This document shows, in pieces, positions 6,851 to 49,449 of a stretch of DNA of 64,000 nt. Location of the stretch: the IMG/VR virus record IMGVR_UViG_3300025889_000092, positions 1 to 64,000 of that record; one strand, 5' to 3'. The DNA comes from a virus. The notes under the pieces are model-generated. The model worked only from the letters and a program-made list of their open reading frames with translations, made no database searches and was not told where the DNA came from. Position 1 is the first letter of the stretch; every line of letters begins with the position of its first letter. The position numbers were made by a program, and so were the translations under genes.

Positions 6851-7033
6851 ATGGAACTTCCTTCAGTCGAAACTTTTACGCTTGAGGATGGGTGTGTCCG
6901 CGTCCAGGTAGGGGACCAATCAGGCGTGGTGAGTAGTTTTCACCTTGTTGAGCCCAAGGCCAATCAGCTTAAAGATGCTTGGATTCGAGCTCATATGATG
7001 CAGGACCCCGACTTAAGCGGAAGCGCTGTCTGA
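6851..7033 (+). CDS. hypothetical protein
   Basis: MELPSVETF...GVVSSFHLVEPKANQL. Confidence 0.6.
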   Translation: MELPSVETFTLEDGCVRVQVGDQSGVVSSFHLVEPKANQLKDAWIRAHMMQDPDLSGSAV

Positions 7034-7735
7034 TTTAGGTATTGCGACGTACATGTTGTCGAAGGGACGGATCTCCTTGATTTCGTACTGGGTCACGTAC
7101 AGGTAGTTAAACAGCTCTTTTTTCTTAGCTGCGAACCACTCGTCGTTGTTTGCCTCAAAAATGATGGGGACTTTTCCGCATCGGTTGAGGGTGTGTGTCG
7201 CTCCCTGCAGGGCGCTCAGTTCGTTGCCCTCGATGTCGAGCTTGATTAGGCCTACGTTCTCGAGGTGGAAACTGTCGATAGTTTTCGTTTTGACTTTTTC
7301 TTGACGGAGAACCGGTTGATGGGGTTCGCAGATGGTCGAGCCGCCGCCGTCTTCGGAAACAATCGAAAGAGTCGTGGTGGTGTTAGCTTTGGAAGGGTTA
7401 GTCAGAGCCACATTGTAAGCGTGGACATTATCCTTTTCGTTTAAAAAGATATTTCCACAGAGTTGGTTGTAGGTGCGTCGCTGCGCTTCAAAGCTGTGTA
7501 CCTCTTTAAAGCTGTCAGCTAAGAGGATTGAGTACGCGCCCATGTGAGCGCCACCGTCGATAAAGACCTTGTTTTTGTCTGCGAAGGTCTGTTTTGCCCA
7601 CTGGATGATGGGTAGTTCAGGCACGCCAACTTGGTGCATCTGACAACGACCGGAATCGTCATCGTGCATCAGGAAGGCACGGTCAGGAACGGGGACGATG
7701 AGACTCTTTTCAGGACCCCACAGATAAGTTGCCAC
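7013..7735 (-). CDS. FkbM-family methyltransferase
   Basis: FIDGGAHMG.YS, SFEA, IKLDIEGNE..ALQGA. Confidence 0.9.
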   Translation of the reverse strand: MATYLWGPEKSLIVPVPDRAFLMHDDDSGRCQMHQVGVPELPIIQWAKQTFADKNKVFIDGGAHMGAYSILLADSFKEVHSFEAQRRTYNQLCGNIFLNEKDNVHAYNVALTNPSKANTTTTLSIVSEDGGGSTICEPHQPVLRQEKVKTKTIDSFHLENVGLIKLDIEGNELSALQGATHTLNRCGKVPIIFEANNDEWFAAKKKELFNYLYVTQYEIKEIRPFDNMYVAIPKSDSASA

Positions 7736-7780
7736 CAGATTCCTGTGTAAGTGCTAGCATGCTACCAGCTTCAGACGAAA

Positions 7781-8548
7781 ATGACGATACCTGTTATTGG
7801 CACTGCCGTCGTTAATACGCCTTATTGGGTATACCGCTTACTATATAGCATAGATTACCCTGTAGACACCTTCGTCATCTTTAACAATAACGGTCGCGGG
7901 GAGATTACCGAGGAGCTGGATCTGCTGACCAAGGTCCCGCACAAGCACGTCAAAAAGATCGTTGTTTGCCACATGCCAGCAAACATCGGATGTTCAGGAG
8001 CGTGGAACTTGATAATCAAGTCCTATATGAATGCTCCGTATTGGGTGATCGTAAATCATGACATTATGTTCACGCCAGGCCTACTTGCGTCAATGGTCGA
8101 GCGCGTGCAGGATGCAGAAACCGGTATTGTCCATGGAGAGAATGGCAGCTGGGATTTGTTTGCGATAAAGGACTGGGTTGTACAACAGTACGGTTTGTTT
8201 GATGAGAACCTGTATCCGGCTTATTGCGAGGATATGGACTATGGGATGCGTTTTAAACATCGCGATTTGAAGCGCAACATGTCCGTCGGTAAGCCTTACT
8301 ACCACGGTGAAACTTCAGGTGATTATGCTGATGGCAGTCAGACCTGGCGTAGTGACCCGTCCTTAGCTATGGGTATCCACAGGGCGCATGAGTTGAACAA
8401 ACAGTATCTTCACGCCAAGTGGAATCCAGCGTGGCAGGCGCACGTTGAGGGGGAGGTGTACAAGACACCGTTCAATAACCCAAGTATCCCTCTCGATTAC
8501 ACCCAATATGATCTACATTTTGTTCGATCTAAAAATCTAGGTTTTTAG
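7781..8548 (+). CDS. GT-A fold glycosyltransferase (GT2-like)
   Basis: N.G.SGAWN, VNHD, GLFDENLYPAYCEDMDY. Confidence 0.8.
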   Translation: MTIPVIGTAVVNTPYWVYRLLYSIDYPVDTFVIFNNNGRGEITEELDLLTKVPHKHVKKIVVCHMPANIGCSGAWNLIIKSYMNAPYWVIVNHDIMFTPGLLASMVERVQDAETGIVHGENGSWDLFAIKDWVVQQYGLFDENLYPAYCEDMDYGMRFKHRDLKRNMSVGKPYYHGETSGDYADGSQTWRSDPSLAMGIHRAHELNKQYLHAKWNPAWQAHVEGEVYKTPFNNPSIPLDYTQYDLHFVRSKNLGF

Positions 8549-8549
8549 A

Positions 8550-8891
8550 ATGTCCGAAGGTGGTTTCCCCTGCACTGGATGCGGCGCTTGTTGTATGGCC
8601 GTCGGGAAGGTTCTTAGCAATGTTGATTGCTTAGATAACCCTGTCCTACGAGCAGCAGTGGAAGTTTTCCCTTACAAAGCCGATGAAAACGGTGTGTGCG
8701 AGAAACTTGTTGATAATAAGTGTAGTGTTTATGACGACCGACCCATTATGTGCAATGTGACTGCTTTAGGTCAGCTGTTGGGACGGAACCCTTACGAGTT
8801 CTATTCTGAAAATATAAAATACTGCAATCAGCTTATTGATCTCTTTGGTCTCGATGAAAGTTACAAAATCACCCAAGAGGGGCTAAAGTAA
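8550..8891 (+). CDS. YkgJ-family CxxCxxCC metal-cluster protein
   Basis: FPCTGCGACC...C..L..N.CSVYDDRP..C. Confidence 0.85.
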   Translation: MSEGGFPCTGCGACCMAVGKVLSNVDCLDNPVLRAAVEVFPYKADENGVCEKLVDNKCSVYDDRPIMCNVTALGQLLGRNPYEFYSENIKYCNQLIDLFGLDESYKITQEGLK

Positions 8892-8914
8892 AAAGTCAGT
8901 ATGTTGTTAGTGGG

Positions 8915-9199
8915 ATGCCTTATTATTCCTCCTACACAACGCACGGATCGCTGGTTAATAGTCTGAAAAGGCTATTGGATTCCCGAGGGATTAGCTCTTT
9001 CAAGCTCAGTAAGGTCTCGGACCTGTCGCCAACGACCACGCGGAAGATATATCTGGACGAACGTTATATACCGTCCCCAGATGTCCTTGAGCGTATTTGC
9101 TTAACTTTGAAGGTGCAACCTGGCGATATCTTGCAAATTGCACCTAAACTAGAAGCATCAGTAGGGGTATGTTCTGGTGTTCTCGCCTCAGGATTATGA
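8915..9199 (+). CDS. Cro/C1 (XRE) helix-turn-helix regulator
   Basis: LK.LLD.RGIS...LS....LS.TT.......P....LERIC..L.VQPGDIL. Confidence 0.85.
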   Translation: MPYYSSYTTHGSLVNSLKRLLDSRGISSFKLSKVSDLSPTTTRKIYLDERYIPSPDVLERICLTLKVQPGDILQIAPKLEASVGVCSGVLASGL

Positions 9200-9680
9200 A
9201 CTAGCAGCTCGGGTCCTGGGTCTTCCAGTTCCTCAGTCTGACGCGGAGCGAGCTGTGGCGGCTCCTGCTGTCCACGCTGTTTTACGTAATTACTACCGTG
9301 CTGCTGCTCCCATGCCGGGGCACGAGCCGGAAGGCCTTTATACCGGAGCTACTCGTTCCTTAAACGGGTACCCCGATAACAACAAGCCTGAAGCGCAAGA
9401 TCAACTCCAGCGTCGCATTACCGCTGGTGTCACCACTCCTGAGGATGGTGCAGAGGTTGAGGGTCTATTGGAAATCCTCCTTCAGGACCCGATGCTGATG
9501 GAGATGTTCATCGACTTCCTCGAGAGTCAGCAACGTCAGTCTCTTGAAAGCGGTGAATATTTGAGCCGCCAGCGTCCCCTTGAGTACGACATGCCTAACT
9601 ACGGCGGTCAGTATTCTGTTCTGAACGCACCTAGCTCCTCCTCCATTCCTCCCTCTGTCGAGTATCAGGCTCTGGGGTGA
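9177..9680 (+). CDS. hypothetical, probably virion-associated protein
   Basis: GTG start with TAAACT box upstream; first gene of a tightly packed block. Confidence 0.7.
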   Translation: MFSPQDYELAARVLGLPVPQSDAERAVAAPAVHAVLRNYYRAAAPMPGHEPEGLYTGATRSLNGYPDNNKPEAQDQLQRRITAGVTTPEDGAEVEGLLEILLQDPMLMEMFIDFLESQQRQSLESGEYLSRQRPLEYDMPNYGGQYSVLNAPSSSSIPPSVEYQALG

Positions 9681-9681
9681 T

Positions 9682-9915
9682 ATGACGGAACGAGAACGAC
9701 AGCTCAAAGAACGCGACGTTCGGAAGATTGCGCCTGATTTAGACCCTACTGGTTTCCTTCAGGCCTACATTCGTTCTAATTTTCCTCAGACGGCAGTGAT
9801 GCCTTCTCCGGAACAAAGAGAGCGTGGCATCTTTAGTTCGTCGTCTGATAATTTACTACAATTAGAAAAGAAGCCTTCCTCAGGCACTTCATACGACAAT
9901 CCAGGTAGGAGCTAA
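9682..9915 (+). CDS. hypothetical protein
   Basis: 77 aa ORF, operon packing. Confidence 0.65.
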   Translation: MTERERQLKERDVRKIAPDLDPTGFLQAYIRSNFPQTAVMPSPEQRERGIFSSSSDNLLQLEKKPSSGTSYDNPGRS

Positions 9916-10667
9916 TGGCAAACCCCTTTCGTCGGTCTCCTATGAGCAATATCGGGGGTACTGCTGGTGACTTGAATCAGCTCGTTCAAACCCTGGTTAA
10001 TGCTTTTGGCCCTGAGGAAGCTGCAAAGATCAGTCGTAGTCCTCAGTTTGGGCAAATGCTCCAGGCTGTTGCATCTCCTAAAAACGTCGGAAGATTTGGC
10101 TTAGGTGGTTTAGCTGCAGGCGTAGGAGCTGAGCTACTCGCTCAACCTATAAGTAATGCGCTGGGAAGTATTCTTCAATCTGGTGCTGGTGCTATAAACC
10201 CGACTTCTTATCAAGCTGCTGGCATGGGCGGCTCGAGTAAGTATTTTGTTCAGCCAGAAGCTATTGCCGGGTACACCCAGTGGTACCAAAACGAGATCCC
10301 ACGCATCCGTTTATGGAACTCGACTATTGGTGCTGCAACAGGCCAGCGTTTGGAGGAACCTCCGACTCCGGAAGAGTATCGTCGCTCGTCGATTGAAGGA
10401 GCTGAGTATCAAGCTCAGACCTTTAATCAGCGTTTAATCGAACAAGAGCGGGCAAAAGCGCAAGCTGAATACGCAATGCGTGCCCTTGAGGCTGGTTATG
10501 GCTTAGAGGCGGAAAAAGTTAAGACACTTGGTGATGTGCAGCGTCAGCGAATTTCTTCTGGTTACAGCGCTGCAGGAAGTGCTCTGAATTCTGCTATCGA
10601 AAACATCCTTGCTACGAGTAAACTAGAGAATAGCCCGGTCCTTTCTGAAGTCGGAAGGGCTTTCTAG
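9915..10667 (+). CDS. putative internal virion/DNA ejection protein
   Basis: Ala/Gly/Gln-rich, Gly-rich hydrophobic segment GLGGLAAGVG, helical C-terminus. Confidence 0.55.
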   Translation: MANPFRRSPMSNIGGTAGDLNQLVQTLVNAFGPEEAAKISRSPQFGQMLQAVASPKNVGRFGLGGLAAGVGAELLAQPISNALGSILQSGAGAINPTSYQAAGMGGSSKYFVQPEAIAGYTQWYQNEIPRIRLWNSTIGAATGQRLEEPPTPEEYRRSSIEGAEYQAQTFNQRLIEQERAKAQAEYAMRALEAGYGLEAEKVKTLGDVQRQRISSGYSAAGSALNSAIENILATSKLENSPVLSEVGRAF

Positions 10668-10675
10668 TACGAAAG

Positions 10676-11398
10676 ATGTTACCTCTCTTAGCTCCAGTTG
10701 CAATTGGTGCCGGTCTCTTCGGTCTCGGGGCAGTGCTTGGAGGCACCCAAAAACCTCGTATGGCTGGGGAAGGGCCGAGCCCTAAAGGAGAGATGCCTCC
10801 TGGGACTACTTATATAGACGCTAATGGGGAGATAAAGGTCTGGGGAGGACCTGATTACGGCCCACAAAGCGTTGCAGCGTGGGAAAAGATGACCGGCCAA
10901 CGTGCTACTGGTTTAGATCAAGCTCAAACCAAAGGTACTCTTCCTCCTGTTCAAAAAGCTCCTCCTCTTGAGGTCCCCCCTGCGCCTCCGCTTCCGCCGC
11001 CGACTAATTTCCCTGACGCTTCTGAAAAAGCTCAGCAGACTATAGATCCAAACTTACAGGCTGTTCTTGATATCCTCAAGGGTCAAACTTCATCTGAGTC
11101 GATTAACGCACTCGAGGAAGCTCGGCTTGATCGACTGCTCCGTGCTCAGCAAGCTCTCTCCGAACAGAGCTACCAGAAAGGTTTGGAGATTTCCCGCCGT
11201 CAAGCTGAACTTGAACGGCTGAGGCAGTGGGGTGCGGTTGAACAAACCCGAATCGCAGCTAATCTAGCTAATACAGGCCTTGTGGCTCAAGCTATGTCAC
11301 TTGCTGCTACGCCTAACGTCAGCGTTATGGACGCCATGACGAAGGGAACTCAGGCTGCTCTTGCTCCTTTCCAGTTTAAACTGGGTGTACGGGGTTAA
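10676..11398 (+). CDS. putative internal virion/DNA ejection protein
   Basis: N-terminal Gly-rich hydrophobic helix, Pro-rich linker, coiled coil. Confidence 0.55.
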   Translation: MLPLLAPVAIGAGLFGLGAVLGGTQKPRMAGEGPSPKGEMPPGTTYIDANGEIKVWGGPDYGPQSVAAWEKMTGQRATGLDQAQTKGTLPPVQKAPPLEVPPAPPLPPPTNFPDASEKAQQTIDPNLQAVLDILKGQTSSESINALEEARLDRLLRAQQALSEQSYQKGLEISRRQAELERLRQWGAVEQTRIAANLANTGLVAQAMSLAATPNVSVMDAMTKGTQAALAPFQFKLGVRG

Positions 11399-11403
11399 AT
11401 AAA

Positions 11404-12123: not shown

Positions 12124-12650
12124 TTAAATCGACAATTGGTGACTCGACCACGGTTGCTTCCTGGTTGGCTTCGCTCGAAAAGTCGCAGAAGGACGCGTTC
12201 GTTTTCTACGCGAAGAACTCGACCAGCGACGTTGAAGCGTATATGTACGCCCGGTTCCTTACACCGGGTTATGCAGGAAGCATCGCAGACCTTACAGCGT
12301 GGGTTCAGGAGAAGTACCCGAAGAGCGACCTTCGCAAGGTACTCCTTCGTGAAATCGACGATCTTCAGGTCGATATTAAAAATATTCGGGATATGACGCT
12401 AACAGGCATGTTGGATCATGCCACGGCAGCAACCAAAATTTCTGCGTTACAGAAGGAACTTCGCTCGCACATCCAAACCGTTCGTCAGATCAGTGACGGT
12501 CTAGATCGTCGAGGTCTTTTGCTGGCGGGAGCTGACCGCTGTCTCCGTGAGTTGGTTAACACGTTTGACGGCCAGCCCGCTATCCAGGCTTTGCTCGAAG
12601 ATTCGTCGCTTCTTGTCTGGTCGACTTTGGAGCGGGAAGAGAAGTCTTAA
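12120..12650 (+). CDS. hypothetical protein, possible terminase small subunit
   Basis: 176 aa helical protein; last + strand gene before TerL. Confidence 0.4.
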   Translation: MIKSTIGDSTTVASWLASLEKSQKDAFVFYAKNSTSDVEAYMYARFLTPGYAGSIADLTAWVQEKYPKSDLRKVLLREIDDLQVDIKNIRDMTLTGMLDHATAATKISALQKELRSHIQTVRQISDGLDRRGLLLAGADRCLRELVNTFDGQPAIQALLEDSSLLVWSTLEREEKS

Positions 12651-13729
12651 TCGACTTCCTTAAGTTTGCTAGTGATGGACCTCAGCGGGCACCTGAAGAT
12701 GCCGTTGAACGCATCATTAACACCGAGTGCCATCACGAGTTGCTGGTCCTCGACGTAGGCACCAAAAGGAAGGATACATGCCGGTTGGAACGAAACCGGA
12801 TGACCGTATTCGTTTGTCCAACAGATAAGTCGATCGTGCAGGGAACCGGAGAAGAGAGGTTCCGGGATCGTGTGGGTGATCCGGGTGAAGTCTTTATCAA
12901 TGACGTAAGCACTGAGGTGGTAAAGGAGGTAATGATTTCCATCCTGCTTTCGAGCCATATGCTTCCAGTGATAAAACACCAGATACCCTGAGCCGATATC
13001 GATCGGGGGAAGCGAGTTGAAGGTAGCGGTGTCCCCAGTGACGGAATTTAAAACATCACTATTGATCTCAATAGCTTTGCTTTTTTCGCACTCGATGAGG
13101 AGAGGGCGAGTCGAATAGAGACAACGGAGTTCATCATGGTGCGAGAAGAAGCACCAGTTTTTCTCCGTTTTATCTTTTTCGTGATTACCCCCGATGGGAG
13201 GGATCGTTGCGCTTACCGCTTCGAGCTCCTCGTTGATGTGACAAACAATGACCTTGGGTTTGTCGAAGAAGCGCAGACCACCCTTTTCGTACTTACTTGC
13301 GTAAGTCGAAGCGACGAACTGTACATACATCTCCCCGTCGGGACCTTCGAAAAGTCGAGGATCTTCGTAGCTCAGACGGTGTTTTCCAGGACGCAGAAGC
13401 TTTGTCCCGAGAATCGTGTTGTCCTCAGCCAGCACACCGATGTAAATATCCGTGGGCTGATTGTTGAGATAGAAGTACTTCATGTCCCAGCGGAAACCAA
13501 ATGCTTCCGGTTGGGAGCGCCACGCGATGTACGTAGTCCCCTTGTGCCGAAGAATGCTGGGACTGAAGTTCGCGACGGAATGCTCAGGGTTGCCCCGAGT
13601 AATTCGCGTAAAGCGACCGTTTAGTTTCTCAGCCTGTGCGTAGACATCAGGGATACCTTCGACATCCTTTTTAATAGGATGGAGCACATAGCTGTGCTTA
13701 TGGTAGTAACGAAGATGCTGCATGATCAC
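12647..13729 (-). CDS. GH130/GT91-like beta-propeller glycoside enzyme
   Basis: NFSPSI, SYEDPRLF, EKNWCFF, PFGA...LGVND motifs. Confidence 0.7.
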   Translation of the reverse strand: MIMQHLRYYHKHSYVLHPIKKDVEGIPDVYAQAEKLNGRFTRITRGNPEHSVANFSPSILRHKGTTYIAWRSQPEAFGFRWDMKYFYLNNQPTDIYIGVLAEDNTILGTKLLRPGKHRLSYEDPRLFEGPDGEMYVQFVASTYASKYEKGGLRFFDKPKVIVCHINEELEAVSATIPPIGGNHEKDKTEKNWCFFSHHDELRCLYSTRPLLIECEKSKAIEINSDVLNSVTGDTATFNSLPPIDIGSGYLVFYHWKHMARKQDGNHYLLYHLSAYVIDKDFTRITHTIPEPLFSGSLHDRLICWTNEYGHPVSFQPACILPFGAYVEDQQLVMALGVNDAFNGIFRCPLRSITSKLKEVD

Positions 13730-14898
13730 TTAGTGAGGTCAACAACGGCTTGGGAGAAACCTGCTGCCACCGATTCCCATCGATACTCAGGTCGTTGGGT
13801 CACGGCGAAGCAAGCATCGGCTACTTCTGCGTAAAGAGCCTTGTCGGCATAAAGCTGGGAGAGAAGGTTCGCAGCGTGGCTCGTATTAATCAAGCCACGT
13901 TCAACACTAAGGTCTTTATCAATAATCCAGGTTGCTACATCGATCAGCATGCCAGCACCGTCCCACAAATCCATGCAGGAGGTGTGACACGGTTGAACTT
14001 GAGGTTTGCGGCAAGCTGCATGCTCAAACGCAACTAGACCCCAACCTTCACCATTAGTGGTATTAAGTCCAACGTCAGCTGCGTTGTAGATCTTGTTCAG
14101 TAGCTCATCCGGAGGAGCCGCGATGTAGTTGATATCCGTAGAGGTCAACACCAAACGGTTGGTTGGATCAAGCCCACGGAGCTTCATCTCCCTTTCGAAC
14201 AAGGGGATAATTTCCCAACCCATGTCCTTAGCCCCCATATGGAGGTAGAGCATGGTGTCAGGTTTGTCTTGCGCAAACTCCGCGAAGGCTTTGATCGTCA
14301 GGTCGATCTGTTTGCGAGGCTGGTTCCTATTTGCGTTCAGGACAATGAACTTGTCCAAAGGCAGGCTTAACGCTTTCCGCGCTTCCTCCCTTGGCATGGG
14401 ATTGAACTTGGATAGGTCAACCCCATGTGGGAGAACGCCCATGCGACTAGGAGAGATACCATGTGAAAGGATGCGGTTTGCTTGTTGTACGGTAAATGTA
14501 ATAGCTAGGTCCCAATGGGGGATATGCCGAAGCATTTCGTTAGGATAGCGCTCGCTGTCCGTGGGGAAGTACGCCACGAACTTAAAGTTGTTTTTCTCTT
14601 TCAGGAAATGGATTCGTTCCCACACCTGATTAACGACCCAAATGTCGTTTAGACAGATAAAAACGTCAGGTTTTTCCTTGTTAAAGATCTCGACTAATCG
14701 AGGTAGACCGAACCGATCCGCACAGTGCAGGTTCGAGGCAGGGTAGATCTTGTAGTCATACTCGTGAGGATCACCGTTGTAGTTGATGCCTATAACAGCA
14801 ACTTCGTGCTCCTTACTTAGGTGGGCCAGGACACTATGTGTTACACGACCAAATCCAGTGTTGGAACAAGCGTCTCCGTACCAAAGGATTTTTGCCAC
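13726..14898 (-). CDS. GT4 (GT-B) glycosyltransferase
   Basis: TGFGRV, PHGVD, NRNQPRK.ID, YNAADV..NTT.GEGWGL...E.AAC. Confidence 0.92.
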   Translation of the reverse strand: MAKILWYGDACSNTGFGRVTHSVLAHLSKEHEVAVIGINYNGDPHEYDYKIYPASNLHCADRFGLPRLVEIFNKEKPDVFICLNDIWVVNQVWERIHFLKEKNNFKFVAYFPTDSERYPNEMLRHIPHWDLAITFTVQQANRILSHGISPSRMGVLPHGVDLSKFNPMPREEARKALSLPLDKFIVLNANRNQPRKQIDLTIKAFAEFAQDKPDTMLYLHMGAKDMGWEIIPLFEREMKLRGLDPTNRLVLTSTDINYIAAPPDELLNKIYNAADVGLNTTNGEGWGLVAFEHAACRKPQVQPCHTSCMDLWDGAGMLIDVATWIIDKDLSVERGLINTSHAANLLSQLYADKALYAEVADACFAVTQRPEYRWESVAAGFSQAVVDLTK

Positions 14899-14950
14899 TC
14901 TGACTTGAATCGAGATAGAGTTAATATAGCAATAGTGTCAACTTAGTGAT

Positions 14951-16471: not shown

Positions 16472-16526
16472 TTTTTACCGTGGGGGTACGTAAAGTCAAA
16501 AGGGTTTCTCGGGTATCCGAGCCGGT

Positions 16527-40376: not shown

Positions 40377-40416
40377 TATTTAGTAAGGAGGGCCGTATTT
40401 ACAAAGAGCATAATAG

Positions 40417-41250: not shown

Positions 41251-41954
41251 TGGCTAATTATCAACGTTTAAAGCGGACTACTTCTACTGTCCAAACAGGC
41301 GATCCTGCTGTTGGAGAGCTGATTGTTAATACTCCCTCCGGTTATGTATATACGACTAGGGATGATGGTGCTCTTGTTTTACTAAATAACGGCATTCCTG
41401 GTCCGATTGGCCCGAGCGGCGTGGTCGGGCCGTCCGGTGCAGTCGGTCCTAGCGGCGTTATAGGTCCAAGTGGAGCCATCGGACCTGCAGGTAGTGGACT
41501 CATACCGTATTACGGCTCTTTTTACAGCAATGCAAACCAGACAAACGCATCTGGTACTGCTGTAAATCATATGACGTACAACAATACAGCTGAGGTTAAC
41601 GGAGTTTCCGTTGCTTCTGGCTATATTGTCCAGGTAGCTAATTCGGGTGTTTATAACGTCAAATTCACCGCTCAGATCCAGAAGTCGAATGCCAGTTCCG
41701 AAGATATACAGATTTGGATTGCGAAAAATAACGTCAATGTTGCTGACTCCAACACGAGTTTGACGATACAGGGGTCAAACAACCGAATCGTTGCAGCGTG
41801 GGGTTGGTTTATTGCTTTAGATCGTAACGAACATGTGGACCTCCGTTGGCATTCAACAGATACTTCAATGTTCTTATTAGCTTCTGGCGCTAATAATTTA
41901 CCTACAAGACCCGCTATTCCTTCTGTTAGTTTAACAGTTAATAGAGTTGGTTGA
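41250..41954 (+). CDS. collagen-repeat fibre protein with C1q/TNF-like head
   Basis: About 12 G-X-Y triplets followed by YGSFYS...SGVYNVKF.AQ beta domain. Confidence 0.8.
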   Translation: MANYQRLKRTTSTVQTGDPAVGELIVNTPSGYVYTTRDDGALVLLNNGIPGPIGPSGVVGPSGAVGPSGVIGPSGAIGPAGSGLIPYYGSFYSNANQTNASGTAVNHMTYNNTAEVNGVSVASGYIVQVANSGVYNVKFTAQIQKSNASSEDIQIWIAKNNVNVADSNTSLTIQGSNNRIVAAWGWFIALDRNEHVDLRWHSTDTSMFLLASGANNLPTRPAIPSVSLTVNRVG

Positions 41955-41998
41955 CACGCACGGTTTGACCCGTATACTTGGTCCGCTTCACCCTCCTT

Positions 41999-42121
41999 AT
42001 GGCCAAACCCAAGTCCACTCTTAACAAAATTGAGTCCAAGCCTAAGAAGACCCGTCAAGGAGACGGTCAGCACTCAAAGGCTTCTCATGGAAGGAAAAAA
42101 TATCGCGGACAGGGAAAATAA
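41999..42121 (+). CDS. small basic phage protein (40 aa, not in ORF track)
   Basis: KPKKTRQG.G.HSK....RKKYRGQGK. Confidence 0.75.
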   Translation: MAKPKSTLNKIESKPKKTRQGDGQHSKASHGRKKYRGQGK

Positions 42122-42152
42122 AAGTAGAATTAAAATAGTAAATACCCCGTAA

Positions 42153-42638
42153 ATGTCTTTTGCCACATTTTTGGCGGGGGAGACTTTAAGCCCCGGCGAT
42201 CCCGTTGCTCTCACAAGTGGTGGAGTCGTTTATAAGTGCTGTGCTGTCGACCCCAACACCCACTTTTTAGCTGGTGTTTGTTTAGAAAGCGGCACAGCTA
42301 ACGGTCAAGTCCGCGTGGGAACGGATAACGCCGGGAGCATTTATTCTGGTTTGACTCCAGGTTATCCCTATTATGTTGGTTTAGCTTCGGGTACTTTAGT
42401 TAATAGTTACGATCAATTTATTACCGATTTGGGTAACACTGGATATGGAAGTGCAGTACTTAATTACGTTGGTCGAGCTATTACTAGTTCGCGCATTTCT
42501 GTTGAGCGTTCCAATCCAATTACTATTACAAATCCGACAGCGGGAAGTTTCTTACTAGAGTCTTCTGTCAGTATTGTGACCCCATTTTTCATTCTTCAAG
42601 AAGATGGGTCTAAAATTACCTTAGAAGGTGCTTCCTAA
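42153..42638 (+). CDS. putative virion structural (cement/RecA-like fold) protein
   Basis: AGE.L..GD.V...G...GLTPG..YYV...G.L....VGRA; paralogous to 47493-48002. Confidence 0.65.
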   Translation: MSFATFLAGETLSPGDPVALTSGGVVYKCCAVDPNTHFLAGVCLESGTANGQVRVGTDNAGSIYSGLTPGYPYYVGLASGTLVNSYDQFITDLGNTGYGSAVLNYVGRAITSSRISVERSNPITITNPTAGSFLLESSVSIVTPFFILQEDGSKITLEGAS

Positions 42639-43390
42639 TGGCTAACGAGAAGATTTCGCAATTTACACCACTAACTACGTTAGCCAGTGGTGACTATTTA
42701 CCTATTATCGACATTTCTGAACCCGCTGCTGCGGATCAGAACAAACGAGTTGGCATTGATATTCTTGACGGTCGGTATTATGCCGCAGCTAGTGGGGATG
42801 CCGCACTAACCTTAGCTGTTTCCGCTCAAGCTTCAGGTAACGCCGCACTTGTTGATGCAGCAGTTGCGTCTGTTGCTCTCGCTTCCGGTAACGCCGCACT
42901 TGTTGATGCAGCAGTTGCGTCTGTTGCTCTCGCTTCCGGTAACGCTGCTCTTGTAGATGCTGCTACCGCTCAAGCTTCAGGTAACGCAGCTTTAACTGAC
43001 CTTAGCGGCAAGTACGACAAGACCGGTGGTCCTATCTCGGGTCCCGTAACCGTTCAGTCTCAGTCGATCGGTACGATCTCGACCTCGACTGTCTCTGGTG
43101 TCATATTCCTCGATTTCGGCAGCGGTAATAATTTTGATATCACCCTTAACGACGCTAACAACACTCTGGCGGCTCCTACCAGCGCCAGTGGCGGTCAGAC
43201 TGGTCAGATCGTTATCCGCCAAGACGGCGGGGGGAGTCGATTACTAAGTTACAGCGGCGGTTGGCAGTTTACCGGCGGTTCAGCACCTACCCTTTCGACT
43301 GCTGCTGGGTCTACCGATGCACTTACTTATTACTGCGCATCTTCTTCGGGCTTCTTAGCTATTCTTACCGCAAACTTCCAGGGAGTTTGA
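42638..43390 (+). CDS. tail fibre protein with ASGNAAL repeats
   Basis: N.KISQ.T.L N-terminus; YDKTGG.ISG; C-terminal I.QDG.GSR.LS....W.F.GG.AP.LST.A...D.L module. Confidence 0.8.
   Translation: MANEKISQFTPLTTLASGDYLPIIDISEPAAADQNKRVGIDILDGRYYAAASGDAALTLAVSAQASGNAALVDAAVASVALASGNAALVDAAVASVALASGNAALVDAATAQASGNAALTDLSGKYDKTGGPISGPVTVQSQSIGTISTSTVSGVIFLDFGSGNNFDITLNDANNTLAAPTSASGGQTGQIVIRQDGGGSRLLSYSGGWQFTGGSAPTLSTAAGSTDALTYYCASSSGFLAILTANFQGV
42836..42937 (+). repeat. exact 51-nt tandem duplication
   Basis: GGTAACGCCGCACTTGTTGATGCAGCAGTTGCGTCTGTTGCTCTCGCTTCC x2. Confidence 0.9.
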
Positions 43391-43393
43391 TAG

Positions 43394-45856
43394 ATGGCTT
43401 TAGGTTCTAAGCTCGCTCCCTTTTTTGGCGCTGCTGGAGCTGCCGGAGCTGGTGGCTACGAGATCGAACGTTCGCTGCGGTTCAACTCATCGGATAGCGC
43501 ATCGCTTACGAAAACTTTTAACGCAACTGGCAGTCAAACTACCTATGCATTTTCTTTTTGGCTAAAGAAGACCAACAACAGTAGTATTTACCAAAACATC
43601 CTTATTGACAACGATTCAAGCAGCTCTCAGATAAGAATAAACGATACTACTGGTGGATTTGAGTTGCGCTTTGCTGCTGCAGGAGCCAGTGCCGCTTTAA
43701 CAACAAATAGAAAGTTTAGAGACCCTTCTGCGTGGTATCACATTGTCTGCGTCTACGACTCCACCAATGCAACGTCTAGCAACAGGATGCGAATCTATGT
43801 CAATGGCGTGCGTGAGACTAGCTTTTTAGGCGAGACACAACCGACACAAAACTTAGCTAGCGCGTTCATAACTAATGGGCACACATACACACTAGGTTAT
43901 TTTGCCGCAAACACGGCTATCGACGGGTATTTAGCTGAGGTCAACTACCTGGATGGTCTCACCCCCGGCACTGCTACAGACGATGCCAACGGTTCTGTCA
44001 CGGGTATTCCCAACGCCCAGTACCTGACGGACTTCGGGGAGTTTGACGCCACCACTGGCGTGTGGAACCCCATCGAATATACCGGCAGCTATGGCACCAA
44101 CGGCTTCCACCTGGATTTTGCGGATAACTCTTCTGCCGCTGCACTGGGCTACGACGCCGCTGGTTCTAATGATTGGACCGTCAACAATCTGAGTGTGACG
44201 GCTGGTGCAGGTAACGACTCCCTGCGCGACTCGCCCACGAACGGCGACCCGGCGAATGACACCGGACTTGGCGGAGAAGTGCCGGGGAACTATTGCACTT
44301 GGAATCCTATTGCATCTAACTCTATTTATTTTGCTACACTTTCCAACGGCAATTTAGATGCTGCAGCTAGCGGTAATGCGCGAATAGCATTTGGAACTAT
44401 TGCTATTCCTTCATCCGGAAAGTGGTATTTTGAGGTTACAACCACTGGAAGCCCAAGCTATCCATATATCGGTGTTGCAAGTTATGGCGATACAAGCACC
44501 GCCTACCCCCAGGACAACATTTTTCCAAGTGTCACCTATTACGGCACGGACGGCACAAAAGATGTAGACGGAACTTATAGTGCTTATGGCGCTACATACA
44601 GCAACGCAACCATTGGCGTAGCCGTCAATGTTGACTCGTCTCAAGTCACTTTCTATAAAGACGGCGTTTCTCAAGGAGCAATCTCCAAAGCGGTTGTTGG
44701 AGCGTTTCCTTTTGTAAGCACTGCGGGCGGCAGCGGAACGTTTATAGCAAACTTCGGCCAACGCGCCTTCGCCTACAGCGCCCCCAGCGGCTTCAAGGCG
44801 CTATGCACAGCCAACCTTCCGACGCCGACCATTGCAGACGGCAGCACCGCGATGGATGTGGCGCTTTATACGGGTAATGGAACGTCTGTCACGGTCGCGG
44901 ATCTAGCTTTTAGTCCTGATTTTGTTTGGTTGAAAGGTCGTTCAGACCCGGACAGACATGGTTTGTATGACACTGTGCGTGGAGCTACCAAGCGCCTTCA
45001 GTCTTCGGAGACCAATGCAGAGGATACGCAAAACGGGGTAACTGCTTTTAATTCTGATGGTTTTGTTGTCGGAAATTACGCCGAAACGAATGGAAGTGGT
45101 AGGACGTATGTCGGCTGGACCTGGGACGCCGGCACGAGCAACGCAACCAACACCAGCGGCACAATAACCAGCACCGTCCGCGCTAACATCTCGGCGGGAT
45201 TCTCGATTGTTACCCTAAGTTATTCGGAATTATCAGGTGCTGTAACCGTTGGGCATGGGTTAGGCGTGGCGCCAAAGATGATCATTGTCAAACGCAGAAA
45301 TACCACCGGGAATTGGTATGTCGCTCATACTGGGCTTACGAATATGAGTGGCTACTACCTACTTCTAGAGTCCACAGCGGCTCAAGGTGCTGCAAGCTGG
45401 GGAAGCGCGCCAACTTCCACTGTTTTTGGGATGAGTGACAACATATTTGGAACTGGAGATTACGTCGCCTACTGCTTCGCCCCAGTCGCGGGCTACAGCG
45501 CCTTCGGCAGCTACACCGGCAACGGCAGCGCAACTGACGGTCCGTTTGTTTATACCGGGTTTAGACCAAGGTGGGTGATGATTAAGGGTTATGTTGGCGG
45601 TCAAGGTAGTTCCTCTCAGTGGTTAATTATTGACACTTCAAGAGATACCTATAATGTTGCTGGCAATAAGCTTGCAGCTAATTTATCTGATCTAGAAAAC
45701 TCCGCAAACGTTGGTACAGTTACGCAGAATACTTTAGACATATTAAGTAACGGGTTTAAGCCAAGAACTTCAAACGGAAGCAGTAACGACGGTACCACTT
45801 CGTATGTGTGGGCAGCTTTCGCCGAAAACCCCTTCAAGTACACCCGTGCGCGATAG
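43394..45856 (+). CDS. large tail fibre/receptor-binding protein (LamG/ConA plus SPRY domains)
   Basis: YEIERSLRFN, RDPSAWYHIV, SGKWYFE, NFGQR.F.Y..PSGFKALCT.NLP, YTGNG, YTGFRP, AFAE.PFK. Confidence 0.85.
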   Translation: MALGSKLAPFFGAAGAAGAGGYEIERSLRFNSSDSASLTKTFNATGSQTTYAFSFWLKKTNNSSIYQNILIDNDSSSSQIRINDTTGGFELRFAAAGASAALTTNRKFRDPSAWYHIVCVYDSTNATSSNRMRIYVNGVRETSFLGETQPTQNLASAFITNGHTYTLGYFAANTAIDGYLAEVNYLDGLTPGTATDDANGSVTGIPNAQYLTDFGEFDATTGVWNPIEYTGSYGTNGFHLDFADNSSAAALGYDAAGSNDWTVNNLSVTAGAGNDSLRDSPTNGDPANDTGLGGEVPGNYCTWNPIASNSIYFATLSNGNLDAAASGNARIAFGTIAIPSSGKWYFEVTTTGSPSYPYIGVASYGDTSTAYPQDNIFPSVTYYGTDGTKDVDGTYSAYGATYSNATIGVAVNVDSSQVTFYKDGVSQGAISKAVVGAFPFVSTAGGSGTFIANFGQRAFAYSAPSGFKALCTANLPTPTIADGSTAMDVALYTGNGTSVTVADLAFSPDFVWLKGRSDPDRHGLYDTVRGATKRLQSSETNAEDTQNGVTAFNSDGFVVGNYAETNGSGRTYVGWTWDAGTSNATNTSGTITSTVRANISAGFSIVTLSYSELSGAVTVGHGLGVAPKMIIVKRRNTTGNWYVAHTGLTNMSGYYLLLESTAAQGAASWGSAPTSTVFGMSDNIFGTGDYVAYCFAPVAGYSAFGSYTGNGSATDGPFVYTGFRPRWVMIKGYVGGQGSSSQWLIIDTSRDTYNVAGNKLAANLSDLENSANVGTVTQNTLDILSNGFKPRTSNGSSNDGTTSYVWAAFAENPFKYTRAR

Positions 45857-45927
45857 AGAAACTAATAAAGTCGGCATTTGCTCTACCGTCGACTTAACGG
45901 TTAGAATTTAAAAAAATCCTCGCGTCG

Positions 45928-46503
45928 ATGTTTGTCTTAAACGGAAAACCGTTAGCCCTCGATAGGCCGTTTGAGGCAAACGGTACCCTTTATCCTGCTA
46001 ATTGGCTGAGGTTATCTTCAACCGCAGCTCGTGAAGCCATTGGTATTACTTGGGTTCCGGACCCTCCTTCTTACGACCAACGTTTTTACTGGGGATATAC
46101 AGCTAGCGGTACGTTGATCCCTAAAGATCATGACCAACTGGTCACCCAGTGGACCGACACGACGCGTCAGGCGGCAAATAGCTACCTCACTCCGACTGAC
46201 TGGATGGTCATTCGTGAGGCTGACAACGGCACCGTGGTACCCAGTGGCCTTAAGGCTTGGCGTCAGGATATCCGCTACGCCTGCGAAGGCAAGGTGACTA
46301 TGCTGTCATTGACCACCGATACTTTCGGACTGGCTGAGTACGTCACTTACGTAAGTCCCTCTGGCGGTGCTCCTTCTGATTACAACTATTGGCCCCGTGA
46401 TCCCAGTTCTACTCCTATTTTTATTAGCGACTCTGCTTCTGACGGGCTGGAGCCTCTTATCGATGTCGAAACTGCAGGACCAATTAGCGGAGAAGCAGTT
46501 TGA
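45928..46503 (+). CDS. tail fibre assembly chaperone-like protein
   Basis: YPANWLRL....R.AIGI, YDQRFYW, L..TDWMVIR...WRQ.IR. Confidence 0.75.
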   Translation: MFVLNGKPLALDRPFEANGTLYPANWLRLSSTAAREAIGITWVPDPPSYDQRFYWGYTASGTLIPKDHDQLVTQWTDTTRQAANSYLTPTDWMVIREADNGTVVPSGLKAWRQDIRYACEGKVTMLSLTTDTFGLAEYVTYVSPSGGAPSDYNYWPRDPSSTPIFISDSASDGLEPLIDVETAGPISGEAV

Positions 46504-46512
46504 TAGTTTGCG

Positions 46513-47391
46513 TTAAATTCGCGTTATCAAGGTTCTGAACTTAGAGCGCCAGTCCTGTTTCCATTGGTTCCAGAACGAGATGCACTTTTCCTGCATCTCC
46601 GAGGAACCTTCTTTTTTTATACGCTTTACAACATCTGCCCAGTCGTTTTCAATAACAAACGGTATTTTTTCGGTACCAAAAAACACTGCGTGCCAGTAAG
46701 AGGGTTCCACTTTTATTTGCTCTGTGTGTTTTAGAGTAATAGGTATCGCGCCTGCTTCTAGTGCCTCGTATATACGGAAGCTGTCCATACTATCCTGACC
46801 CTGGGGGCACAAGGCAAACTTAGAGTTATTAAGTAGTTCTCTGTACTCTTCAGTACTCAAACCATCCGCAGCGTTAAAGCCGCTGCAAAAATGTGTCTTG
46901 AAGTTTGTGCTGTAACTTTTTAATTGTTCGACGGCGCTTCTACGCATGTCGTCATGCAAACTACCGGCAAAGCACCAGTCGTATTTTCGATCCTCGAACT
47001 TTTTAATTTCAGTACTGCACTCACTAAAACCCTTCTTGTAGCCAAGACCGAACACAGTCAGTTTTGGATGCCTGTGGTAGAACGGATGGAAATAGTTACG
47101 CGCAACGAAAGCACAGTTGGGATCATGGAGGTACTCCATTGGCTCTCTCAGATTTTCATCAGATAGCAGTATCACTCCGTAGCGTTTCCCGTTTTGTCGT
47201 AAAGCGTCTAAATAAGCTCGATAGTTTACGGCGTGATTACATACAACAACACAGTCTTCTAAAGGAGGTAGGTTATCAAACGTGTTAGTGACGATTACCT
47301 CAACTTCTGCATCTTTAAATAGCTCTGAGAGCCAGTCGTACTCCCATTTATCCAGGTTGACATCAAACCAAATGACTTTTGTTCTTGTCAT
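46513..47391 (-). CDS. exostosin-like (GT47) glycosyltransferase
   Basis: RKYDWCFAG, Y...L.NSKFALCP.G....SFRIYEALEAGAIP. Confidence 0.82.
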   Translation of the reverse strand: MTRTKVIWFDVNLDKWEYDWLSELFKDAEVEVIVTNTFDNLPPLEDCVVVCNHAVNYRAYLDALRQNGKRYGVILLSDENLREPMEYLHDPNCAFVARNYFHPFYHRHPKLTVFGLGYKKGFSECSTEIKKFEDRKYDWCFAGSLHDDMRRSAVEQLKSYSTNFKTHFCSGFNAADGLSTEEYRELLNNSKFALCPQGQDSMDSFRIYEALEAGAIPITLKHTEQIKVEPSYWHAVFFGTEKIPFVIENDWADVVKRIKKEGSSEMQEKCISFWNQWKQDWRSKFRTLITRI

Positions 47392-47492
47392 ACGTCGATT
47401 TTAATGCTTGGCTAGTTTAAACCAAAGTCCGTAGCCGCCAACAAAAAACTTAGGTGGTAGACTTAAAAATATAACCCTGCCGACAGGGATAA

Positions 47493-48002
47493 ATGACAGA
47501 CCGGGCGATTTTTAATCGGAAGTACACTTCCTTTACTTCTGGCAGTACGTCTGTCTTTCTCGTTAACGGAGCTGGGGTTACCACCCAGTTGTCTCCTACC
47601 GAGGACTTTACTGCTGGTGAAGATTTACTTCAAGGCGATTTTGTTTACGTAAGCGGCGTTTCTGTCTTTAAAGCAAGCGCCCTCAGCGGTCTTGCAGCTA
47701 CTAACTACGCTGCAATTGGCGCAACTGCGGCAGCGGCTTCTATTGGTGGCACCGTTTCCGTTAATTTAGACAGCATTGTTGTCCTGGGTGATGCCAACAT
47801 TACGGCTGATTCCGCGCTTATTCCTGGTGAGTACTATTATCTTTCTAAGTATTCAGGGCAAGTTACAAGGTTCTCCACGGCGTCGGGTACTATTTCAAAC
47901 TCCGGTACCCTCCAGTATCAGGTCGTCGCCCCCGTGGGACAAGCCTTAAGCACTTCGGAGCTCGAGGTTGAGATTCAGCCCGTTACCATCATTTTTGATT
48001 AA
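47493..48002 (+). CDS. putative virion structural protein
   Basis: AGEDL..GD.VYV...L.PG..YYLS...G....VGQALS..EL. Confidence 0.65.
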   Translation: MTDRAIFNRKYTSFTSGSTSVFLVNGAGVTTQLSPTEDFTAGEDLLQGDFVYVSGVSVFKASALSGLAATNYAAIGATAAAASIGGTVSVNLDSIVVLGDANITADSALIPGEYYYLSKYSGQVTRFSTASGTISNSGTLQYQVVAPVGQALSTSELEVEIQPVTIIFD

Positions 48003-48634
48003 TAGTTCTCACTTAGTGTTTTTATAAGAGTGTTCAGAAGCATTCGGGAGTCATTGTCTTCTCCCGTAGCCGTGTTTTTATCGAACTCAAGTTCTTGATT
48101 AAACGTGTAGTGAAGAAAAATTTGCTTGACCCACTTTTGCTGGCATTTTTCTCGCCAGTGTGGCAGCTCCATACCCATGTAGATGATTCCGTCACCTATT
48201 TCAGGTTTACCTGAATACGTGACTTCCTGCTGTTTGTTCTCGAAAAATATCTCCCAGGGTTGACTCTTATCGTGCATATCCAAGCATATAGAGATACTTA
48301 ACTCACATTCAGGTCTGTCTATATGTTTTTTTAAGTCTTGAAATTTATAGTATTTTCTGTAAAACCCGTATGTGCTGTAAATACTTTCTAATTCTAGTTT
48401 ATTTTTAAGTTTTTCGAGAACTATACTGTTTGCTATTTTTGTTCCTACTGAGTTGTAGACTTCTCTGGAACCTTCAACTTGATTAGAGTTTGTTTTTACT
48501 GCTTTTAGTATATCTAACTCAGTTTGTATGCTGAGGTACTTACAAAGATCATAATCAAGAATGTTTTTTACTAGACAGCACCTGTTACTAGAGAAGTCTT
48601 TGATATTTTCAGATATTTGTGTGATGCCTGCCAT
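47999..48634 (-). CDS. 2OG-Fe(II) oxygenase
   Basis: LKKHIDRPECE.S.S, GDG.IY.G....HWRE, Q.FLHY. Confidence 0.85.
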   Translation of the reverse strand: MAGITQISENIKDFSSNRCCLVKNILDYDLCKYLSIQTELDILKAVKTNSNQVEGSREVYNSVGTKIANSIVLEKLKNKLELESIYSTYGFYRKYYKFQDLKKHIDRPECELSISICLDMHDKSQPWEIFFENKQQEVTYSGKPEIGDGIIYMGMELPHWREKCQQKWVKQIFLHYTFNQELEFDKNTATGEDNDSRMLLNTLIKTLSENY

Positions 48635-48685
48635 AATCTTTTTAAGTAGATTTATAATGTAGCTACACAGGAGATTAGCGGCAAA

Positions 48686-49084
48686 GTGACGTTAAGAAAA
48701 CCCCTCGTCATTATTAGTGGTTTATCTTCTCAGTTGCCTCCTGGCGACACCATCGAAGGGGCCGCTGTTTCAAGCACTGCAACAGCAGGCAGCGGCCTTT
48801 CTGGAGGGGGCGCGGTCGGAAGCGACTTTAGATATGACGTAGTTCTAGCGGCGAGTGCAAGCGGACTGATCTTTACTCCTGGCGCAAGCGGCCTAGGTAT
48901 TGACGGTTCGGCAATTGCGTCCGGCAATGCTGCGCTTAGCCTCGGCAATACCGCTTTATCCTCAGGTAACGCAGCCCTTGTGGACGCTTCGACCGCCCAA
49001 GCATCGGGTAATGCCGCATTGGCTGCGGTAGCAACTAAACCGACGACCGCTTCTGTCGTTGGTTTGATTATTGCTCTCGGCTAA
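48686..49084 (+). CDS. fibre-related protein with ASGNAAL repeats
   Basis: RKPLV..SG...QL..GD; AGSGLSGGG; ASGNAAL repeats. Confidence 0.7.
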   Translation: MTLRKPLVIISGLSSQLPPGDTIEGAAVSSTATAGSGLSGGGAVGSDFRYDVVLAASASGLIFTPGASGLGIDGSAIASGNAALSLGNTALSSGNAALVDASTAQASGNAALAAVATKPTTASVVGLIIALG

Positions 49085-49125
49085 TTGTTCTGAAGCTGCT
49101 ATAATTTTTGTAAGGAGGCCACATC

Positions 49126-49449
49126 ATGTCAGCTTTTGTCGCTTCGGGTGTTGACTTACCTGGAACGGAGCCTTTAACCGTCTTAAGGAACGCCAACTAC
49201 GATCAAGTAGTTCTTAGTATTCTTGGGGCAAATACTGGCGCTAGTCCCGTTAACTTAGATCTTACTGTTTCCGGTTCTACTACCGGTTACAAATATCTTT
49301 TTAAGAATAATCAGGTCGCTGCCGGTAACTCGACAGATTACGTCGCAAATAAATATATACTTCCCTCGGGCTGTGAGCTTCAAAGTCGTGCTTCTGCAAG
49401 CGGCACAGTTACTATGTTTACGAGCTCGTATTTGGTCGATTACCCCTAA
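49126..49449 (+). CDS. small virion beta-protein
   Basis: SD AAGGAGG; 107 aa. Confidence 0.65.
   Translation: MSAFVASGVDLPGTEPLTVLRNANYDQVVLSILGANTGASPVNLDLTVSGSTTGYKYLFKNNQVAAGNSTDYVANKYILPSGCELQSRASASGTVTMFTSSYLVDYP

Follow-up and report, generated by a model that had tools for sequence, protein, structure and literature searches.

A candidate virion O-glycosylation system in an S-EIVl-related phage: putative glycosyltransferases and Ser-Gly-biased peripheral virion proteins

The window analyzed here is the first 64 kb of the single-contig virus record IMGVR_UViG_3300025889_000092 (81,807 bases), which belongs to a phage related to Synechococcus phage S-EIVl. Two groups of its genes are considered: seven putative enzymes of glycan synthesis or modification, and a series of small virion proteins rich in the dipeptide Ser-Gly (SG). 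An earlier note had proposed, from these two groups, a phage-encoded pathway that builds a possibly methyl-capped glycan on [A/V/P/S]-S-G sites of decoration and fibre proteins. Hereafter, open reading frames (ORFs) and their products are referred to by their first coordinates, glycosyltransferases are abbreviated as GTs, and triplets such as 13/4/3.6 denote the numbers of SG, Gly-Ser (GS), and expected SG.

Four of the seven enzymes named in that note score above curated Pfam or NCBIfam cut-offs. These are an accessory FkbM-family methyltransferase (7013-7735, minus strand; TIGR01444, 79.4 bits against a cut-off of 37.7; PF05050, 52.3 against 22.7); a GT4-family GT-B glycosyltransferase (13726-14898, minus strand; PF00534 and PF13439), whose Glycos_transf_1 and Glyco_transf_4 domains reach 31.6 bits against 26.4 and 31.8 against 28.5, respectively; a GT17-like glycosyltransferase (18937-19782, plus strand; PF04724, 60 bits against 26), in which the match is restricted to residues 2-115 and to profile positions 75-190 of 348; and an accessory GT47/RXYLT1-like glycosyltransferase (46513-47391, minus strand; PF03016, 43.5 bits against 33.4; PF24785, 49.1 against 27). 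The other three stay under their family cut-offs. One is a GT2-like glycosyltransferase (7751-8548, plus strand), which scores 23.0 bits with PF00535 against a cut-off of 23.3 and matches PHROG 29879, 'galactosyl transferase', at 4e-21; its homologue in one complete relative (35830-36618) has an in-frame TGA. Another is a GH130-like protein (12647-13729, minus strand), a candidate mannoside phosphorylase or transferase fold with a weak PF04041 match: orthologues score 13-22.5 bits (cut-off 26; E from 6e-5 to 0.05; 5/6 orthologues) in the C-terminal 100 residues only, and PF04041 occurs in 13-37% of the members of the nearest Atlas clusters. The last is the product of 16527-17402 (plus strand), which has no named sequence family and is predicted to adopt a GT-A fold with an acidic motif. 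Its AF2 model (pLDDT 87, pTM 0.87) was searched with Foldseek, as the earlier note had suggested for the GTs, and gave 357 PDB matches at E ≤ 1e-3 (E from 6e-7) with modest TM values of 0.31-0.44; the top listed matches are mostly GT-A glycosyltransferases, with a few nucleotidyltransferases, and Y100, E102, and D104 (an E-x-D motif) are invariant.

Sequence searches against solved structures gave chlorovirus B736L (3oy2, 2e-17, residues 12-326) as the best solved relative of the GT4 enzyme and exostosin-1 (7sch, 1e-4, 64 residues) as a match of the GT47-like enzyme, and no usable match with the GT17-like, GT2-like, and 12647 enzymes or the 16527 profile. No hydrophobic 19-mer above KD 1.25 was found in any of the seven enzymes. 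These results support a real enzyme set that is predicted to be soluble and free of membrane anchors. As the earlier note had described, the enzyme genes are mostly interleaved with packaging and tail genes: 16527 and the GT17-like gene lie between those of the large terminase (TerL; 14951-16471, 506 aa) and the portal (19956-22202), and the GT47-like gene lies among the fibre genes.

One SG-rich protein is encoded between the portal and the major capsid protein (MCP) genes (23095-23844, plus strand; 7/1/2.6, p = 0.009), with a mean of 5.7 SG against 3.3 expected in 63 orthologues, and another is encoded 3' of the MCP gene (25055-25927, plus strand; 6/3/3.3). The latter is biased in both the window's clade and the S-EIVl clade, as its orthologues have a mean of 6.5 SG against 3.3 expected and the S-EIVl orthologue shows 9/3/3.4. 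Two small SG-biased proteins follow (29489-29896 and 29954-30508, plus strand; SG/GS 3/0 and 4/0), and S-EIVl-clade orthologues of 29954 show 8/1/2.8 and 8/0/2.5. The SG-richest protein (32046-32660, plus strand; 12/2/3.8, p = 0.0005; PHROG 356, minor tail protein) carries an ASGAIV-type hexapeptide five times (32424-32519). Among solved structures, this hexapeptide matches hexapeptide transferases weakly (E 0.09-0.3), and the 'Pizza' matches of 32046 reflect a propeller-blade-like motif; sequence searches of the solved structures with 42638, 32046, and 25055 gave nothing usable. The fibre gene block (40417-43390, plus strand) comprises 40417 (10/5/4.4), 41250 (10/3/2.7), 42153 (4/4/2.4), and 42638 (13/4/3.5); 41250 contains four collagen-like GPSG units (41409-41486), and 42638 contains four ASGNAAL units (42830-42994). 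Further small SG-biased proteins, all on the plus strand, are 45928-46503 (4/0/1.2, p = 0.02), which lies beside the GT47-like gene and whose orthologues have 3-5 SG in loci without that gene, 47493-48002 (6/1/2.0, p = 0.0095), 48686-49084 (8/3/2.9), which has three ASGNAAL units (48917-49021), and 49126-49449 (4/1/1.1). Relatives differ in their number of ASGNAAL units, which ranges from about 1 to 8. A 94-aa protein (17763-18047) encoded between the 16527 and GT17-like genes has 2-4 SG in 29 orthologues (mean 2.7 against 0.9 expected).

Two proteins provide a contrast. One is the MCP (23925-25040, plus strand; 0/4/2.1), which is depleted of SG, the opposite of the fibres: 80 orthologues have a mean of 0.2 SG against 2.1 expected, and 3.0 GS. 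Another is the large distal fibre protein (43394-45856, plus strand; 8/14/10.0), which has Laminin_G_3, SPRY, and DUF7483 domains and whose orthologues have about as many GS as SG. The claim that fibre and decoration proteins are SG-rich is thus borne out for small fibre, tail, and head-associated proteins, but not for 43394, the largest fibre, or for the collar fibres 49449 and 50519.

Our recount reproduced exactly all ten SG and GS hand counts of the earlier note, as well as the absence of SG from the 371 aa of the MCP. The per-protein dipeptide statistics that it had called for were obtained with composition-preserving shuffles of the 87 ORFs of 80 aa or more. The SG excess was significant at p < 0.01 in 7 of the 87 ORFs (23095, 32046, 40417, 41250, 42638, 47493, and 48686) and at p < 0.05 in four others (37289 on the minus strand, 45928, 49126, and the endolysin gene 56020); 25055, 29489, and 29954 were singly non-significant (p about 0.1-0.15). 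The excess of the endolysin (7/3/2.7) was attributed to chance, since its orthologues (SG/GS 2/2, 3/4, and 1/6) do not keep it. When 13 virion proteins (2583 aa), picked with the counts already seen, were pooled, they held 91 SG against 33.1 expected (2.75x) and 27 GS, and the remaining 74 ORFs held 89 SG, 97 GS, and 87 expected SG. The asymmetry between SG and GS is highly significant in the pooled set (91:27, p = 2.7e-9) and insignificant in the other 74 ORFs (89:97, p = 0.61).

The bias might be a by-product of composition, tandem repeats, or post hoc protein choice, given that the proteins are Ser- and Gly-rich, that some of them carry repeats, and that the pooled set was chosen as stated. 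However, the shuffles, which preserve composition, give p ≤ 0.01 in seven proteins; GS is not raised; 87 of the 91 8-mers around SG are distinct; and the orthologues in both clades repeat the bias. This explanation is already largely refuted and can hardly be credited any longer. The argument of the earlier note that the excess of SG over GS speaks against simple composition therefore holds. The tandem repeats of the SG unit that it named are present, but they account for little of the excess, which is no repeat artefact because nearly all the 8-mers differ from one another.

Other dipeptides ending in Gly show no excess in the pooled proteins (TG, 12 against 25 expected, 0.48x; NG, 0.96x; DG, 0.76x), so that the excess is specific to Ser before Gly and does not reflect a preference for X-Gly turns in general. 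SG is encoded with each of the six Ser codons (AGY, 42%) and each of the four Gly codons and therefore does not represent a DNA motif; a DNA-level cause was ruled out by this codon usage together with the unbiased other 74 ORFs. The residue preceding the Ser is enriched in A (2.4x) and P (3.2x; each p < 1e-4), by which the site proposed in the earlier note narrows to [A/P]-S-G. From position -3 to +3, the six most frequent residues include no acidic one. A comparison of 18 fibre and SG-rich proteins revealed sequence relationship in two pairs only, namely, 42638/48686, both biased, and 49449/50519, the unbiased collar fibres; the bias spans at least ten unrelated protein families.

These properties bear on the main rival to virion glycosylation, according to which SG serves the fibre proteins of this lineage in a structural or biophysical role, e.g., as a turn, hinge, or packing element, and the GTs act on the host envelope, exopolysaccharide precursors, or small molecules. 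We consider this rival a serious candidate, although on balance a doubtful one. A generic turn preference should raise NG and DG too; neither is raised, and a generic beta-turn cause was ruled out on this ground. The occurrence of the bias across so many unrelated families also speaks against the structural explanation.

Whether the protein folds demand SG can be judged from conservation. Ser is more conserved in SG than elsewhere (0.76 against 0.57, p = 0.004), its commonest replacement being T, and most SG columns are 70-100% conserved within a clade. Between the clades (about 30% identity), in alignments that are uncertain in their middle parts, SG columns coincide at 2 of about 14 in the 25055 family and at about 1 of about 13 in the 29954 family, and the number of sites is kept. 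Such shifting of the sites at a steady density is not what a structural device would lead one to expect. Annotated fibre proteins from five phages in culture (Caulobacter phage S2B; cyanophages SS120-1, S-CBP2, and PSS2; and Roseobacter phage CRP-811) share homology with the C-terminal 100 residues of 42638, and none of these five genomes (0/5) matches PF00534, PF00535, or the window GT4. The shared domain holds five SG in the window protein against one or two in the five phages, whose whole fibre proteins are unbiased (2/3/2.0, 11/18/8.2, 11/12/8.3, 3/2/1.9, and 10/8/5.0). SG is therefore laid over a fold that does without it elsewhere, which is again unfavourable to the structural explanation, although one SG (GQSG) is common to all, and its conservation in phages without detected GTs fits that explanation. 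Several results thus say that SG is not demanded by the folds, and the data support a bias that arises from selection on the amino acids, is limited to peripheral virion proteins, and is conserved within clades.

A fixed criterion (SG ≥ 5, SG ≥ 2x GS, and shuffle p < 0.01) flagged 12 of the 163 ORFs of the window genome and S-EIVl (7/93 and 5/70, respectively). In seven other aquatic phages, the corresponding numbers were 1/34, 0/37, 0/38, 0/35, 1/35, 0/32, and 0/73 (total 2/284), and the difference is significant (Fisher p = 1.8e-4). The bias was judged absent from these seven phages, in which no GT was found or annotated, Syn5 and P-SSP7 being assessed for GTs by record annotation only. The coliphage fibres T4 gp37 and T7 gp17 show no SG excess.

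The enzymes accompanying the bias were compared among five near-complete IMG/VR records of the window's clade (93-100% by CheckV) and five long records of the S-EIVl clade (four 100% complete, one 89%). The GT4, GH130-like, GT2-like, 16527, and GT17-like enzymes are present in 5/5 window-clade relatives, and the GT2-like gene is evidently core in this clade; homologues of 16527 and the GT17-like gene also occur in all 23 IMG/VR loci that hold both TerL and portal (23/23). The FkbM and GT47-like genes are each found in 2/5 window-clade relatives, in the same two records, and a GT47 homologue occurs in 3 of 26 fibre loci. Fibre-module loci without GT47, where the orthologues of 45928 and 47493 are direct neighbours, keep the bias (e.g., 13/4/3.6, 12/2/3.5, and 14/2/3.5). 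In S-EIVl, only the GT4 homologue is present among the seven enzymes, and five proteins are SG-biased (pooled 49 SG, 12 GS, and 18.5 expected SG). A GT4 homologue with 42-45% identity is encoded in 5/5 long S-EIVl-clade records, none of which has a GT2 match over the cut-off, and nearly all 25055 and 29954 orthologues in the S-EIVl-clade loci examined are SG-biased.

A GT4 homologue thus accompanies the bias in 12/12 genomes of the two clades (the ten relatives, S-EIVl, and the window), whereas the other six enzymes are dispensable for it, a point in favour of the structural explanation. The earlier note had suggested such a comparison and had allowed that the same bias in relatives lacking the GTs would speak against its proposal; the bias is indeed kept without GT47 and FkbM, but GT4 is missing from none of the 12 genomes. 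Since relatives without them keep the same bias, the GT47-like enzyme and the FkbM methyltransferase are judged optional. Both are absent from 3/5 window-clade relatives and from S-EIVl, and neither exostosin extension nor a methyl cap, two parts of the earlier proposal, can be kept as a core step.

Outside the lineage, homologues of the window GT4 were found in three cultured phages: S-CBS4 (45%), TJE1 (34%), and Mae-JY09 (30%). S-CBS4 is a cyanosiphovirus with an unrelated capsid and tail. Its portal gene is followed by one small ORF, the GT4 homologue, a GT2-like homologue (gp015; 26%, 1.6e-8), and a methyltransferase gene (gp014-gp016). In its tail module, four small proteins hold 26 SG and 7 GS against 7.8 expected SG, and the capsid protein has 0 SG; a fifth flagged ORF was left out as an antisense artefact of ORF picking. 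S-CBS4 thus resembles the window in combining GT4, GT2-like, and methyltransferase genes within a morphogenesis module with SG-biased small tail proteins, and these proteins are non-homologous to those of the window. It differs in being a siphovirus with unrelated capsid and tail and fewer enzymes. In Mae-JY09, the capsid gene is followed by one small ORF and then the GT4 homologue, and one tail protein was flagged. That S-CBS4 and Mae-JY09 have their GT4 homologues within head and tail gene modules is a further argument against the structural explanation. In TJE1, a Tetrasphaera phage, the GT4 homologue belongs to a gene series upstream of the terminase (5388-10731) that also encodes a nucleotidyl transferase, a nucleotide kinase, an epimerase, and a methyltransferase and looks like a small nucleotide-sugar pathway.

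The substrate of the GTs may also be considered directly. Phage glycosyltransferases are often categorized as auxiliary or host-takeover functions (PHROG category), which would suit an action on the host as supposed by the structural explanation. However, Pfam scans of the ORFs found no nucleotide-sugar synthesis, flippase, polymerase, or priming transferase family, and the lack of the last three and of membrane anchors argues against it. Another possibility is that the GTs decorate the phage DNA in the manner of T-even phages or TET/JBP systems, with the SG bias being a separate matter. The genome encodes a dCMP deaminase, ThyX, a Dam-like methyltransferase fragment, and three 2-oxoglutarate (2OG)-Fe(II) oxygenases, one of which weakly matches Tet_JBP (E 0.0013, below the cut-off), all of which would suit such a role. 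Yet no hydroxymethylase family was found among the ORFs, no homologue of the oxygenases was found in related fibre-module loci, five to seven different GTs exceed the needs of known DNA systems such as that of T4, and S-CBS4 and Mae-JY09 encode their GT4 homologues in head modules; DNA decoration is very improbable. Only slightly less remote is the explanation that the Ser of SG bears some other modification, such as phosphorylation or acylation, or a host-made glycan, with the phage GTs being unrelated. The Ser-specificity, the [A/P]-S-G context, and the raised conservation would fit any enzyme-recognized site, and S-EIVl has only one recognizable GT; against this, the scanned ORFs matched no kinase or acyltransferase family, and in S-CBS4 the bias is again accompanied by GT4 and GT2-like genes.

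The best single explanation appears to be a phage-encoded system that O-glycosylates the proteins of the phage's own particle in the cytoplasm, and we hold it with a confidence that comes near to even without reaching it. The soluble enzymes and the Ser-specific [A/P]-S-G bias are consistent with this part of the earlier proposal. Late in infection, the GT4 enzyme would put the first sugar on the Ser hydroxyl of exposed SG sites; it is proposed as the initiator because it is the only enzyme common to all SG-biased genomes, and the sugar may be mannose from GDP-mannose, since the enzyme resembles chlorovirus B736L. The side-chain-free Gly would let the acceptor backbone into the catalytic cleft. 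Extension of the sugar would fall, in the window's clade, to the GT2-like, GT-A (16527), GT17-like, and GH130-like enzymes, and in some strains the GT47-like enzyme and the FkbM methyltransferase would add an optional terminal elaboration. The initiator would thus be GT4 and not the exostosin-like enzyme, with the methyl cap and the GT47 step optional. The sugar coat may protect or tune the fibres, though its purpose is a guess. We would rather doubt than assert the wider form of this proposal, in which [A/P]-S-G serves as a sequon-like code for cytoplasmic O-glycosylation on the fibre and decoration proteins of a globally abundant cyanophage lineage, glycosylation starts with a B736L-like GT4, the same logic recurs in unrelated aquatic phages, e.g., S-CBS4, and sugar-coated tails are common and overlooked.

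Several points weigh against virion glycosylation, besides the choice of the pooled set and the unbiased state of the largest fibre, 43394, and the collar fibres 49449 and 50519. One is that we infer the virion glycan from genes alone. Another is that the whole lineage has GT4 among its core genes, which makes the 12/12 co-occurrence of GT4 with the bias inseparable from common descent. In addition, none of the 57 ORFs of TJE1 was flagged (mild excesses only), and in Mae-JY09 only 1/33 was. SG-rich proteins also exist in genomes without annotated or detected GTs, namely, Syn5 gp54 (14/3/5.6; none annotated) and SS120-1 ORF 029 (15/6/8.2; none detected), and SG is in mild excess (1.9-2x) in lambda J, lambda H, and T7 gp12. 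The repeats likewise fit structural classes, i.e., the collagen-like GPS, the predicted-helical ASGNAAL, and the ASGAIV hexapeptide; these repeats and the Syn5 and SS120-1 proteins favour the structural explanation. The AF2 model of 42638, made with 20 relatives, is of low confidence (pLDDT 44) and shows a helix only in the ASGNAAL region. Finally, we know of no GT4 of this kind that acts on protein, and B736L binds GDP-mannose but has no established acceptor, and its target may not be the capsid protein (PMC9614988).

Comparison with known systems helps to delimit the proposed one. Literature searches on glycosylated cyanophage or tail-fibre proteins found nothing relevant. To our knowledge, self-glycosylated phage particles have been chemically shown only for some mycobacteriophages, and self-glycosylated particles are also known for giant viruses of algae and amoebae; in mycobacteriophages, the modified proteins are reportedly capsid and tail-tube subunits. 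The virions of mycobacteriophages Che8, Corndog, and Myrna are glycosylated by phage-encoded glycosyltransferases (Freeman et al. 2023, as cited in PMC12363180). Compared by description, the likeness is that phage-encoded soluble GTs would modify the phage's own structural proteins in the cytoplasm. The differences are that the hosts of those phages are actinobacteria, that the window MCP has no SG, and that no dispersed [A/P]-S-G motif on many small fibre proteins appears to be described for them. The chlorovirus proteins B736L and A546L (PDB 3oy2 and 3oy7), from a eukaryotic algal virus, are likewise virus-encoded GT-B enzymes without a membrane anchor, and provide the best solved relative of GT4. 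The bacterial autotransporter heptosyltransferases TibC and Aah, which act on TibA and AIDA-I, are soluble cytoplasmic enzymes; ahead of export or assembly, they hyper-glycosylate a repetitive, beta-rich surface protein at many of its serines (PMC4358343). The likeness lies in the mode of action only, as TibC and Aah belong to another enzyme family, dodecameric and with an iron finger, and Pfam and NCBIfam scans found no heptosyltransferase family among the ORFs.

The eukaryotic proteoglycan analogy drawn in the earlier note is not supported. A Ser-Gly dipeptide and a GT47-like gene are both present in the window, but the sites have no acidic flank, no GT14-type xylosyltransferase family was found in Pfam scans of the ORFs, and GT47 is not tied to the SG motif, being missing in 3/5 biased relatives. 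In the collagen-like exosporium glycoproteins BclA/BclA3 with SgtA, the glycosyltransferase genes are adjacent to those for GPT triplet proteins. Both there and in the window, a hydroxy amino acid occupies the Y position of Gly-X-Y (GPT in BclA, GPS in the window) with GT genes nearby; however, the window has only about eight triplets in one protein (41250; Pfam Collagen 18.9 bits against a cut-off of 27.2), and most of its SG sites lie outside triplet repeats. If the fibres are indeed glycosylated at a readable motif, glycosylation sites would be predictable from sequence, many orphan glycosyltransferase genes of aquatic phages would gain a function, and a new variable would enter host recognition, stability, and decay of cyanophages in lakes and seas. 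Cultures of S-EIVl and S-CBS4 exist, which makes the glycosylation hypothesis directly testable.

This cyanophage lineage is widespread in lakes and seas and turns up very often in public viromes. More than 590 IMG/VR stretches encode a relative of the window MCP, the best 80 being 94-98% identical, and more than 590 were also obtained with the S-EIVl version as a query, the best 80 again being near-identical. S-EIVl is the only cultured relative found, and its capsid protein is 68% identical to the window MCP. The S-EIVl terminase (14080-16620, 846 aa) aligns with that of the window in two pieces (residues 1-199 and 193-506) separated by about 990 bases; since the terminases of S-EIVl-clade relatives have 508-512 aa, the isolate carries an insertion, perhaps an intein or a mobile element. 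The tail and fibre gene block of the window extends over about 27.9-51 kb. Four relatives have two copies of a cassette composed of a 42638-like small and a 43394-like large fibre protein, and the window has one copy and the short 48686. The three 2OG-Fe(II) oxygenase-like genes are located partly between the fibre genes and partly beyond them (47999-48634 on the minus strand, 52189-52803, and 53286-53831); because no homologues of these or of the collar-domain fibres 49449 and 50519 were found in related fibre-module loci, they look like an accessory island. A role of the oxygenases as Pro-hydroxylating partners for P-S-G has no support. A ferritin/Dps-like gene within the structural module (32657-33193, minus strand) is kept in both clades, its product being 51% identical to the S-EIVl 'DNA-binding ferritin-like protein'. 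The endolysin (56020-57252) has two domains, a phage lysozyme and a C39-like papain-type peptidase, and the peptidase part is common to S-EIVl 3215-4324. The primase gene (59770-62556, minus strand) lies within the window and that of a family A DNA polymerase in the remainder of the 81,807-base record. A VWA-domain gene and the adjoining gene of a MoxR-type AAA+ ATPase (bpMoxR, 2e-55) lie at 71958-74691 (minus strand), in the half of the genome devoted to replication.

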